Under the pieces are notes generated by a model. It worked only from the letters and a program-made list of their open reading frames with translations. It did no database searches and was not told the DNA's origin. Below are positions 25,472 through 28,498 of a DNA stretch of 64,000 nt, one piece after another. The stretch lies in NCBI GenBank assembly GCA_037310415.1, contig CP147780.1, positions 1,664,001 to 1,728,000 of the forward strand, written 5' to 3'. A program made the position numbers and the translations under genes. This DNA is from Candidatus Atabeyarchaeum deiterrae. Its GTDB lineage: Archaea; Asgardarchaeota; Atabeyarchaeia; Atabeyarchaeales; Atabeyarchaeaceae. Each line of letters starts with the position of its first letter. Positions within the stretch are counted from its first letter, which is position 1.

Positions 25472-25666
25472 GATACTTGGGATCCAGAAAAGGGACGCTG
25501 GAGACTAATACCATGACCTCCTAGATTAATAGTGATCATAGACTAAATAATCCTTTTTCAGAGAGCCATTAATTCGAATTCGATTTCAGGTGATCATTCC
25601 GCGAGGACTGCAAGACTCAACCATCCAACCTCATCCTGACCGTAAACGACCGTCTCCGGGGCTTCA

Positions 25667-25945
25667 CTACAAGTCTTGACTCGGTTCCTCATAGACCGAA
25701 CTTTGTGAAGGTACCTTGTCCCCAGGTCTTCTATCTGGGAGTTGCGAGTACCTTCCGTCAGCTGTTCGGTACACAGCGATCCTCGCGACGGATTGCCATT
25801 CTTGGTTTTCGCTGAGACCTCTTATCTCAACTCTTATAATTTCAGCCTTTGGATCACTCTTACCTTGCCAAACTGACAGATTTAGGAATTCACCTGACGG
25901 CAGCCTTGCCGAAAAACGAGCCTTTGGTTGATTGCGTTTCTCCAT
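25667..25945 (-). CDS. Small conserved-looking hypothetical protein (beta-rich)
   Basis: FLNLSVWQGK...IRVEIR...WQSVARIAVYR; purine-rich ribosome-binding site. Confidence 0.65.
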   Translation of the reverse strand: MEKRNQPKARFSARLPSGEFLNLSVWQGKSDPKAEIIRVEIRGLSENQEWQSVARIAVYRTADGRYSQLPDRRPGDKVPSQSSVYEEPSQDL

Positions 25946-26014
25946 TTTTCCCTTACCCCAATCACGCTCATTGAAGATATATTGCCTCGAAACATAGCTA
26001 AGAAGGTTACTGAA

Positions 26015-26329
26015 TCATTCGCTACCGCTTGCCTTCTCCATTAACGAGATGCGAAAGGGATGTAGCTCCGCCGTCATAATCCGCTTCCTAACGGCCGGAT
26101 CGTTCTTCATGAAATATTCCGCCTCTGTTTGCGATTTCGCTCGAAAAATCACAATACCGAACTGCCCATCTAGACACGGTCCAGCCAGAATCACTTTCTT
26201 CTTAGCTATTCCTTTCTGCTGATATTCAAAATGCTCATCGACAATAGCTTCGTCCTCGGGAGACATATTTCCGTATGTATCGGGCTTCACAAGCTTCAAG
26301 AGATAGACGAAAGTGGATATCCCACTCAG
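26015..26329 (-). CDS. YciI family protein
   Basis: EHFEY, LAGPCLDG, FMKNDPAV, LHPF. The in-frame extension FVYLLKL runs to a CTG at 26329 (track start 26299). Confidence 0.85.
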   Translation of the reverse strand: MSGISTFVYLLKLVKPDTYGNMSPEDEAIVDEHFEYQQKGIAKKKVILAGPCLDGQFGIVIFRAKSQTEAEYFMKNDPAVRKRIMTAELHPFRISLMEKASGSE

Positions 26330-26533
26330 CTAGATCACTCTTCTATTCCCCAAAGGTCAAACTAATTTCTTGGTATACGCTTGGATTGAGTGTTCAACGC
26401 TAGTTCTATTAAAGCTTTTCAGGCAATAAACATCTGGCATTCCTACAGTCCAAAAAACCCTTAATAATGTGACCCATAGTATGGTCTATAAGCGATTCTG
26501 AGATCCCGAAGGGAAACGAGGGCTAAGGGCGAA

Positions 26534-27799
26534 ATGACTCTACTCGTATACAACACGAAGTCCAAGCAAAAGGAGAACTTTGAGCCCCTAGAGGACAATA
26601 GAGTGAAGATGTATGTATGTGGACCGACCGTCTACGATGTTCCACACATAGGACATGGTAGATCATACGTTTTCTTTGACGTTGTCAGAAGATACTTAGA
26701 GTTCCTGGGATACGATGTTACATTGGTCACAAATTTCACGGACACAGAGGCTAGCATCAACAAGCGGGCACATGAACTTGGCAAGAATCCACTGAAACTA
26801 GCAGACGAGATGATCGAGGTTTTCCTGAGAGAAATGGATCGACTTGGCGTCAAGAGAGCCAACTACTATCCTCGCGTAACCCAGCACATAAAGGAAATCA
26901 TCGACATGACTGAGAGACTTATCGAGATGGGCTATGCTTACGTAGTTAATGACGAAGTGTTCTTCGAAGTTCAAAAAACCAGAGGATATGGGACGCTAGT
27001 TGACCTACCTATTGAGGAACTCATAGCCGGTCAGAGCGCAGAGACGGGGGAAACAGAATCAAGCGGGAAACGCAGCTCTCAAGACTTCGCATTGTGGCGA
27101 AAGAGCAAGCCTGGTGAACCGTCATGGAGCAGTCCTTGGGGAGAAGGAAGACCAGGCTGGCATATTGAGTGCTCAGCCATGTCAACTAAGTACCTGGGTT
27201 CCCAGATCGATATTCAGGGTGGTGGAACTGACCTCATATTCCCGCACCATGAAAGCTCGAGCCTCATTTGCCAAACCCTCTTCGGGAAACCCTTCGCGAA
27301 ATACTACATTCACAATGGATTCATAACCGTGAACCGAAAGAAGATGTCAAAGTCACTTGCAAACTTTGTAACTCTCAAAGAGGTCTTGAAGAAATATGAC
27401 CACGAAGTTGTCAGGTTCTTCTTACTTGGCAAACGATACAGGGAGCAGCTTGAGTACGATGATAAAGAGATGGCTAAAGCGGAGACAAATCTTAGAAGAA
27501 TACAGGGAGCGATCAATAAGACGATCAAGACCCCGACAGTCAAGACTGGGAAGGAGTGCATGGAAGCGGAAAAATGTTTGATTAATAGGTTGGTTGAGGC
27601 AAAGAGCAAGTTCATTGAGGCCATGAACGACGACTTCAACACAGAGGAAGCAATAAAGAGACTGCTTAAAGCTTCACAGCACATTGAAGAGTTCACGGAG
27701 ACATGCAAACAATTTACGACTGAAGAAACAGGTGAACAGGCCAAAGCGATATGTAAGCAGTTCAATGATGTGATGGGGGTTTGCAGGAAGCTGAAATAG
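26534..27799 (+). CDS. cysS: Cysteinyl-tRNA synthetase-like protein lacking the C-terminal anticodon-binding domain
   Basis: MYVCGPTVY, HIGH, GRPGWHIEC, KMSKS, DALR-like AMNDDFNT. Ends at 421 aa. The symbol denotes the family only; this may be a paralog. Confidence 0.85.
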   Translation: MTLLVYNTKSKQKENFEPLEDNRVKMYVCGPTVYDVPHIGHGRSYVFFDVVRRYLEFLGYDVTLVTNFTDTEASINKRAHELGKNPLKLADEMIEVFLREMDRLGVKRANYYPRVTQHIKEIIDMTERLIEMGYAYVVNDEVFFEVQKTRGYGTLVDLPIEELIAGQSAETGETESSGKRSSQDFALWRKSKPGEPSWSSPWGEGRPGWHIECSAMSTKYLGSQIDIQGGGTDLIFPHHESSSLICQTLFGKPFAKYYIHNGFITVNRKKMSKSLANFVTLKEVLKKYDHEVVRFFLLGKRYREQLEYDDKEMAKAETNLRRIQGAINKTIKTPTVKTGKECMEAEKCLINRLVEAKSKFIEAMNDDFNTEEAIKRLLKASQHIEEFTETCKQFTTEETGEQAKAICKQFNDVMGVCRKLK

Positions 27800-28033
27800 C
27801 ATATGCTCGATGGCTAAATCATAGTGAATAGAACCTTGTACTCTTACTCGAAGAAGCTTTGACCTTGTCGGTGGGAACATCATCTTGGCTTCGTCCCCAG
27901 AAAAAAGGGAAGATGATTGAGGTTTCGGCAATCTGAACCTGACCGGAGCATCAGAGATTGTCCCCGCGTCCTGGCGATCTGATCCGAGATTAGCTCCATA
28001 AAGTCCCCATTTCGGAATTCCTGCGCAGGCTTT

Positions 28034-28222
28034 TTAGGCTTCTTTTGTTAGGTCCTTTGTTTGAGCGTTGGCATTCTTCTTAACGGACTCTATGCCTTTG
28101 ATACAGGATTCCTTCCTTTCATAGGCTTCGCCAGTGGCGATTGTCTCGCCATTCGTTGCCTTCAACCTGAACCTGAATTTCCCAGACTTGTCCTTGAAGA
28201 TCTCATAAATAGCTTCTGGCAT
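28034..28222 (-). CDS. YegP/DUF1508 family protein
   Basis: YEIFKDKSGKFRFRLKATNGETIATGEAY...GIESVK. Confidence 0.9.
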   Translation of the reverse strand: MPEAIYEIFKDKSGKFRFRLKATNGETIATGEAYERKESCIKGIESVKKNANAQTKDLTKEA

Positions 28223-28498
28223 ATCTAACTCCCCATTCTTTGTGGTTGTTACTCTGTCTGTCCATGTATAAAAATGCTCCCAATCGGGCGGTGTCTAACT
28301 GTCCTGCAAGATGTCTATAAGGGGTTGTGAGAGAATTGCATCTCTACATCCAGAGATACCTCAGTTGACATTTCACGAGGTATCCATATCTTTATAAGCG
28401 ACGTTTCATTTCGCGTGAGTGAAATCTCAGATACAGATGGGAGAAAGCGCACTACTTTTGGCACGACCAGAAGTTCTGGATTTTTGTTTGGTGGAAAT

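Follow-up and report, generated by a model that had tools for sequence, protein, structure and literature searches.

An anticodon-binding-domain-less cysteinyl-tRNA synthetase paralog of Asgard archaea, a candidate tRNA-independent cysteine ligase

A homolog of cysteinyl-tRNA synthetase (CysRS) of 421 aa was identified as an uninterrupted open reading frame (ORF) at positions 26534-27799 (+) of a 64,000-nucleotide stretch (the window) from the genome of Candidatus Atabeyarchaeum deiterrae (contig CP147780.1, positions 1,664,001 to 1,728,000). The protein stops behind the helical bundle and lacks a C-terminal alpha/beta anticodon-binding domain (ABD). In addition, its active site carries changes like those of MshC, the L-cysteine:GlcN-Ins (glucosaminylinositol) ligase of Actinobacteria. 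Together, the missing ABD and these changes suggest that the acceptor to which the protein attaches cysteine is probably not tRNA-Cys. Judged from its sequence, the best reading of the paralog is a tRNA-independent cysteine ligase with a non-tRNA acceptor, to which we assign a probability of about 0.5. Translation is served by two canonical cysS genes located beside a tRNA-Cys gene elsewhere in the genome, and the paralog is a functional, class-specific gene under selection.

Pfam searches placed the class I CysRS catalytic domain (tRNA-synt_1e, 395 bits) at residues 16-317 and the DALR_2 helical bundle at residues 359-416. The NCBIfam cysS model TIGR00435 matched the paralog with 445.9 bits, passing its cut-off of 340, and covered model positions 2-403 of 466 only. 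The MshC model TIGR03447 scored 279.1 bits, which is below its cut-off of 485.1. Residue correspondences were taken from an alignment to the E. coli CysRS (1LI5 numbering). The gene and its motifs are located in the window as follows.

26458..26468 (+): CTTAATAAT, a TATA-like box read directly from the DNA, candidate archaeal promoter about 65 nt 5' of the ATG
26534..27799 (+): gene for the ABD-less CysRS paralog (P0001), monocistronic, both flanking genes on the opposite strand
26618..26629 (+): CGPT, C29-T32, with the putative Zn ligand Cys (E. coli C28, MshC C43); G30 and T32 predicted to bind the cysteine amino group
26645..26656 (+): HIGH motif, H38-H41, intact
26738..26755 (+): TDTEAS, T69-S74; T69 is E. 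coli T68 and is kept, K73 of the canonical DDK is replaced by Ser
27020..27076 (+): connective peptide 1 (CP1) loop, about residues 163-181, GARVE replaced; AlphaFold2 predicted local distance difference test (pLDDT) about 62
27158..27172 (+): WHIEC, W209-C213, with the second Zn ligand Cys (E. coli C209) and the Trp packing on the substrate (E. coli W205)
27209..27259 (+): DIQGGGTDLIFPHHESS, D226-S242; Q228 stands for E. coli H224, H238 is Zn ligand H234, S242 stands for E238
27341..27355 (+): KMSKS loop, K270-S274, intact
27557..27796 (+): clade-specific C-terminal helical tail with four conserved Cys
27800..28033 (no strand): intergenic DNA 3' of the stop codon, no ABD remnant

All of the motifs quoted in an earlier note on this DNA, made from the letters alone, were present and could be placed: CGPT (C29), HIGH (38-41), TDTEAS (69-74), WHIEC (209-213), DIQGGG (226-231), PHHESS (237-242) and KMSKS (270-274). 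Its statement that the protein stops without an ABD was confirmed: the cysS model stayed uncovered past position 403, and a tblastn search with eight ABD sequences found neither an ABD remnant nor a stand-alone ABD, its matches being confined to the two canonical cysS genes. The same note had described the Zn ligands as intact. This was correct for C29, C213 and H238 and incorrect for the fourth ligand, E. coli E238, which is Ser242 here, so that three of the four E. coli ligands (C28, C209, H234) are kept. It had also pointed to the MshC-like Q and S substitutions and to DxQGGG and PHHExS as features of MshC. M. smegmatis MshC indeed reads DIQGGGSDLIFPHHEYS, and the two substitutions are real, conserved in the clade of the paralog (21 members, including the orthologs of two related genomes) and absent from about 190 canonical CysRS.

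The adenylation site appeared untouched. HIGH (residues 38-41) and KMSKS (270-274) are invariant across the clade, and C29, G30, T32, T69, W209, C213 and H238 are all kept, among them the counterparts of E. coli C28 (C29), G29 (G30), T68 (T69), W205 (W209), C209 (C213) and H234 (H238). In MshC, C43, C231 and H256 coordinate the Zn together with the substrate thiol, and G44, T46 and T83 bind the cysteine amino group (PMC9736012). All of these six residues are conserved in the paralog. The Rossmann-fold residues for Cys-AMP formation are likewise unchanged.

Other positions have changed throughout the clade. K73, H224 and E238 (E. coli numbering) are invariant in about 190 canonical CysRS, and all three are replaced here. 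At K73, the Lys of the canonical DDK, all clade members have Ser, MshC has Pro, and a bacterial family of short CysRS-like proteins has Asp. H224 is Gln in the clade (Glu in the ortholog of the sister genome G012), and E238 is Ser or Thr in all 21 members. Both H224 and E238 were kept in 189 of the 189 full-length CysRS sampled, and all 20 sequences with Q and S/T at these positions are short. The canonical helix EIAQSE reads SSLICQ in the paralog and SS[LIM][IV][CS]Q across the clade. Mukai et al. connected the CP1 motif (S/A)GARVE with reading of the first acceptor base pair (PMC5389517). In the clade, an acidic loop rich in Ser, Glu and Gly takes the place of this motif; the loop is four residues longer, variable between orthologs and predicted to be disordered. 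Since the ABD and GARVE are lost and K73, H224 and E238 replaced while the Rossmann residues are untouched, the changes concentrate on the acceptor side. Residues 205-262 scored 67 bits against MshC and 60-62 bits against the CysRS of E. coli or Coxiella. A group of full-length Asgard CysRS (family f12, loci L028-L036) also lacks GARVE and reads EPEPAE at this position; many genomes of this family show two cysS-type matches.

The AlphaFold2 model of the paralog, built from an alignment of 92 sequences, had a pLDDT of 93, with about residues 160-180 as the sole weak region. Foldseek ranked the archaeal CysRS 8QHP first (template modelling (TM) score 0.92), and the E. coli CysRS-tRNA complex 1U0B (0.88) and MshC (0.82-0.84) were also matched.

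The genome is one closed contig of 2.757 Mb with three cysS-type genes, the paralog and two full-length genes in tandem about 149 kb upstream of the window. The tandem genes scored 567 and 532 bits over model positions 1-465, and both are canonical, with TDV[DE]DKI, IHGG, PHHENE and an ABD. A tRNA-Cys gene lies directly 5' of the pair on the same strand; it contains an intron and has the acceptor GGGGAGU, the anticodon context CUGCA (GCA) and U73. The tRNA-Cys (C1:1514976-1515102) and the pair, whose two proteins are 59% identical to each other, occupy C1:1511852-1515102 of the genome (loci L001 and L002). No SepRS was detected above cut-off in the genome. The protein is therefore a paralog, as the sequence alone had suggested, and it is not the only route to Cys-tRNA in a complete genome, two full-length cysS genes and a tRNA-Cys gene being present elsewhere. 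The sister genome G012 carries one canonical and one short copy, and therefore the tandem duplication of cysS is specific to this species.

The shortness of the paralog could indicate a truncated or decaying cysS copy, either a pseudogene or an assembly artefact, and the small number of RNA runs at hand showed no transcript of the gene itself. However, an identical 421-aa protein was encoded by three independent Logan contigs or assemblies, and there was neither a frameshift nor an ABD remnant. A search of 5.8 billion proteins retrieved 18 further clade members with 69-75% identity and lengths of 356-447 aa; the next matches were full-length CysRS with 49% identity. All 21 clade members end in ...MGVC[RK]KL without an ABD, so that neither a recent truncation, which close orthologs with an ABD would have revealed, nor an assembly error explains the short form. 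Between species, the short orthologs were 75.5% and 71.7% identical, compared with 64.5% and 60.8% for the canonical copies, and therefore the short gene is more constrained. Together with the confidently predicted fold, these results refute a pseudogene or artefact for practical purposes. In one wetland metatranscriptome run, 8% of the words of window positions 25600-28300 were found, and its single contig of 234 nt (25743-25976) covers only an upstream ORF, which makes it uninformative on the CysRS paralog.

The short form was present in three of the three genomes of its class, each of which also has one or two canonical copies. Among 301 Asgard-phylum genomes (about 298 others sampled), none was found outside its own family. 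The source names of the metagenomic relatives were Njordarchaeum or Njordarchaeota. Every source name seen for clade proteins in the searched collection was 'cysteine--tRNA ligase' or 'cysteinyl-tRNA synthetase', and no paper describing this clade was found in the literature.

The earlier note had proposed a tree of CysRS and MshC as a check. Trees were calculated with IQ-TREE under the posterior mean site frequency (PMSF) model from 87 rows (quick) and 45 rows (careful). The comparison set comprised two bona fide MshC (above 660 bits), four actinobacterial MshC-like proteins, the bacterial family of about 400 aa without an ABD, and canonical CysRS. Two groups separated with support of 100 in the Shimodaira-Hasegawa-like approximate likelihood-ratio test (SH-aLRT) and 100/100: MshC and the MshC-like proteins grouped with the bacterial short family, and canonical CysRS with the clade of the paralog. 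The clade branched within the archaeal sequences on a long stem (0.75-0.83); it was closest to the Freyarchaeia-type Asgard CysRS and did not adjoin the canonical copies of its own genome. Since it falls among archaeal CysRS and not with MshC, the likeness to MshC looks convergent. Forcing all ABD-less forms into one clade cost 34 log-likelihood units in the 87-row tree (p 0.06, approximately unbiased (AU) test) and 17 units in the 45-row tree (p 0.113). Convergence is thus favoured and not proven, a common origin not being rejected by the AU test at p 0.06-0.113. The signatures of the MshC group, CG[IV]TPYD, HxGHA[AF]TY, LDFVLWQ and NER-GG[ND]-PD, have no counterpart in the clade. Membership in the MshC family is ruled out by these missing signatures, by the TIGR03447 score (279 bits against 485) and by the tree split (100/100). 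The interpretation given in the note was thus supported in part, its small-molecule amine acceptor and its new thiol being possible readings.

MshC (TIGR03447; 3C8Z, 8HFM) and the paralog nevertheless share much. Both are derived from CysRS, have about 410-420 aa and no ABD, keep HIGH and KMSKS, and coexist with a normal CysRS. Both have three protein Zn ligands (Cys, Cys, His) with a residue other than Glu at the E. coli E238 position, a Gln at the H224 position, no Lys in TDxDDK and a rebuilt CP1 motif. Unlike MshC, to which it is 32% identical, the paralog branches with archaeal CysRS, lacks the MshC-group signatures, has no linked glycosyltransferase family 4 (GT4), PIG-L or GNAT partners and carries a different, Cys-rich C-terminal tail. 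Compared with canonical archaeal CysRS (TIGR00435; 8QHP; closest were the Freyarchaeia-type Asgard and Thermococcus enzymes), it showed 49-52% identity and shares CGPTVYD, HIGHGR, DFALW, WHIEC, KMSKS and the fold (8QHP, TM 0.92). In contrast to these enzymes, it has no ABD, GARVE, K73, H224 or E238, its EIAQSE helix is rewritten, and it sits on a long stem and has a new conserved tail.

The bacterial family of about 400 aa (P0159, P0217-P0335), named from Parcubacteria, Gottesmanbacteria, Nealsonbacteria, Deltaproteobacteria and others and annotated by NCBI as cysteine--tRNA ligase, resembles the paralog in the missing ABD, the loss of K73, the frequent replacement of H224 and E238, and the coexistence with a full-length CysRS. 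It differs in that it is sister to MshC in the trees and directly followed by PIG-L or GT4 genes; its identity to the paralog is 41%. The immediate 3' neighbour was a PIG-L deacetylase on two contigs, with an overlapping stop, or a GT4 glycosyltransferase, at the following loci.

L182 6001-7915: bacterial short family gene with PIG-L or GT4 downstream
L183 6001-7915: bacterial short family gene with PIG-L or GT4 downstream
L184 6001-9075: bacterial short family gene with PIG-L or GT4 downstream

This is the arrangement expected of an MshC-type ligase, and it looks like an MshC-type thiol pathway outside Actinobacteria. These short proteins were also considered as the housekeeping CysRS of bacteria of the candidate phyla radiation (CPR). 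This was rejected, as 78 of the 81 Patescibacteria genomes were matched and about 73 of the matches spanned the whole cysS model; a Levybacteria genome with the short form also carries a full-length CysRS.

Several observations weigh against a tRNA-independent ligase. The paralog gene is monocistronic and its neighbours suggest no pathway. Partners of the types MshA (GT4), MshB (PIG-L) and MshD (GNAT) were absent near the gene; a genome-wide search for PIG-L found three genes, all in sugar-catabolic contexts. These loci do not support a mycothiol- or bacillithiol-like pathway, the three PIG-L neighbourhoods having no GT4, GNAT or inositol genes. The paralog keeps more of the canonical Rossmann-fold residues than MshC-type enzymes do, passes the cysS cut-off and is closest in fold to CysRS (8QHP, 1U0B). 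It also retains the stem-contact fold (SC-fold) and helical-bundle domains, which contact tRNA in CysRS. A precedent pointing in the same direction is CysRS* of Desulfobacterales, an ABD-less paralog with an altered CP1 motif; its gene lies in a selC*-selB*-cysS* operon, and its predicted substrate is tRNA-Cys(UCA) (Mukai et al. 2017, PMC5389517; review PMC9437257). An engineered CysRS without the ABD, carrying the CysRS* CP1 motif, was active in vivo (PMC5389517). Because CysRS* is predicted to act on tRNA, loss of the ABD alone is no proof of tRNA independence. Most tRNA genes of this genome are moreover intron-rich and undetectable with standard tools (ARAGORN found 7-24 and Rfam 18), and because introns make detection poor, a partner tRNA could have been missed.

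The paralog might accordingly still be a tRNA synthetase that ignores the anticodon, serving as an auxiliary CysRS for tRNA-Cys or, like CysRS*, being dedicated to an unusual tRNA, perhaps one whose non-GCA anticodon serves recoding in this lineage, which uses selenocysteine (Sec). Like CysRS*, it is an extra ABD-less copy with a changed CP1 acceptor-stem motif in a Sec-using organism, and it keeps the helical bundle and HIGHGR. Sec use has been reported for Atabeyarchaeia (PMC11291895), and the genome has one EFsec gene and a tRNA-Sec-like gene with UCA. However, neither a tRNA gene nor a selB copy lies near the paralog, with no tRNA genes or Rfam families found within 10 kb on either side, and the EFsec gene is single. 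The tRNA-Sec-like gene has G73, where CysRS requires U73. Compared by the description of CysRS* only, the paralog differs in having no linked tRNA or second selB and a CP1 loop that differs from ortholog to ortholog, with predicted disorder, and is not re-specified as a new fixed motif. The three replaced residues near the acceptor pocket are invariant in canonical CysRS, and Freyarchaeia also use Sec yet lack this clade. We therefore regard a tRNA-charging role as unlikely, though it carries appreciable weight.

The tRNA-Sec-like gene (C1:208792-208906, 25.9 bits) has the anticodon loop CUUCAAA, G73 and inserts, and lies 2.7 kb from the single EFsec/SelB gene (C1:211584-212486), which fits the published Sec use in the lineage. 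Two ARAGORN predictions were discarded as candidates: 'tRNA-SeC(tca)' at genome position 246125 and 'tRNA-Trp(cca)' at 243848 are ordinary intron-containing tRNA-Arg(UCG) and tRNA-Arg(CCG) genes. They are 91 nt each, differ in one anticodon base, have a 13-nt intron after position 37 and encode CCA.

C1:243848-243938 (L165 1349-1439): tRNA-Arg gene (CCG)
C1:246125-246215 (L165 3626-3716): tRNA-Arg gene (UCG)

No clear cysS* was found in 121 Desulfobacterales genomes, which instead had CysK-CysRS-like fusions and a short type without a Zn ligand. In most of these genomes the second cysS-like match lay inside an open frame of about 760 aa. One ORF of 730 aa (L185, G511:C44) encodes a CysK-like cysteine synthase joined to a CysRS-like domain that lacks an ABD and whose KMSKS is degenerate. 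The other type, a third kind of short CysRS-like protein without an ABD, occurred in a closed Freyarchaeia-type genome and a Desulfobacteraceae metagenome-assembled genome; WHIEC is changed to WNIQD and PHH to RHH, so that a Zn ligand Cys is lost.

L193 (G037:C1:2176317-2177573), minus strand: short CysRS-like protein without the Zn ligand
L176 6050-7318: short CysRS-like protein without the Zn ligand

The C-terminal 95 residues of the paralog contain four clade-specific conserved Cys (C342, C391, C407, C417); C342 and C391 are both missing from one clade member. The final 30 residues hardly vary across the clade, which shares the near-invariant ending QAKxIC[KR]QFNDVMGVC[RK]KL. A profile of the tail, searched against 1.84 billion representatives at E<1e-30, recovered one further protein, a 108-aa fragment resembling a clade member. 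The Cys-rich tail might bind a second metal or a partner.

Such a tail could also serve as a docking surface if the paralog cysteinylated a macromolecular target that is not a tRNA 3' end. GluQRS/YadB attaches glutamate to a modified tRNA nucleoside, and PoxA/GenX attaches lysine to elongation factor P (EF-P). The acceptor of the paralog could by analogy be a modified tRNA nucleoside or a protein, as characterised ABD-less aminoacyl-tRNA synthetase paralogs such as GluQRS and PoxA act in this way (listed in review PMC9437257). The extreme conservation of the last 30 residues suggests a partner interface, and the helical bundle is kept. However, the analysis yielded no candidate partner, none of the neighbouring genes is a conserved partner of known type, and there is no precedent for cysteine, which leaves this explanation a slim chance.

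A slimmer chance still is given to a cysteine-binding or Cys-AMP-forming regulator or sulfur-trafficking protein with no defined acceptor, such as a cysteine sensor or a persulfide producer comparable to the cysteine persulfide synthase (CPERS) activity of CARS. The cysteine and ATP sites appear intact, and the four new Cys of the tail would suit such a role. CARS enzymes make cysteine persulfide using the lysines of KIIK and KMSKS. However, the first KIIK lysine (E. coli K73) is precisely the residue lost here, and the coordinated remodelling of the acceptor pocket is more easily explained by a new acceptor than by none.

For a tRNA-independent cysteine ligase, the conserved residues suggest that the paralog would still bind cysteine through the three-ligand Zn site and would activate it with ATP to Cys-AMP. 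tRNA-Cys would no longer be the acceptor, and the cysteinyl group would be passed to another nucleophile, most simply a small-molecule amine, by analogy with MshC. Such an enzyme would have arisen convergently: an Asgard-type CysRS would have lost its ABD, its CP1 GARVE motif would have decayed, K73, H224 and E238 around the acceptor pocket would have been replaced, and the Cys-rich tail would have been gained. More tentatively, an Asgard class (Atabeyarchaeia/Njordarchaeia-type) may have independently evolved a tRNA-independent cysteine ligase that makes a new cysteinyl conjugate, be it a low-molecular-weight thiol, a cofactor or a protein.

The genes upstream of the paralog, in divergent orientation, encode a YCII protein, a 92-aa protein, a HAD hydrolase and an acyl-CoA dehydrogenase, and those downstream a DUF1508 protein, a cation-diffusion facilitator (CDF) and a nitroreductase. 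A comparison of ortholog neighbourhoods, also proposed beforehand, showed that the gene order is kept in related contigs, which are close kin only, and revealed no known type of pathway partner. The 92-aa ORF (window 25667-25945, minus strand) had no Pfam match; every related contig has it conserved immediately upstream of the paralog, and the wetland metatranscriptome contig (25743-25976) matches it with 100% identity.

The annotation of these proteins as cysteine--tRNA ligase inflates marker-gene copy numbers (the CheckM-type contamination is 6% for this closed genome) and may hide a distinct function. If the paralog instead acts like CysRS*, this would be a hint of recoding in a lineage that stands near the origin of eukaryotes. 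To our knowledge, MshC is the sole characterised CysRS that has turned into a tRNA-independent ligase. If the paralog is such a ligase, it would represent a second independent origin, in archaea, and the route of ABD loss, loss of the K73/H224/E238 triad and CP1 rebuilding would be repeatable and provide a sequence signature for recognising CysRS-derived ligases. As far as we know, next to nothing has been established about thiol and redox chemistry in Asgard archaea. A dedicated cysteine ligase would be a concrete handle on it, and its product might, for instance, be the first dedicated low-molecular-weight thiol reported from these archaea.

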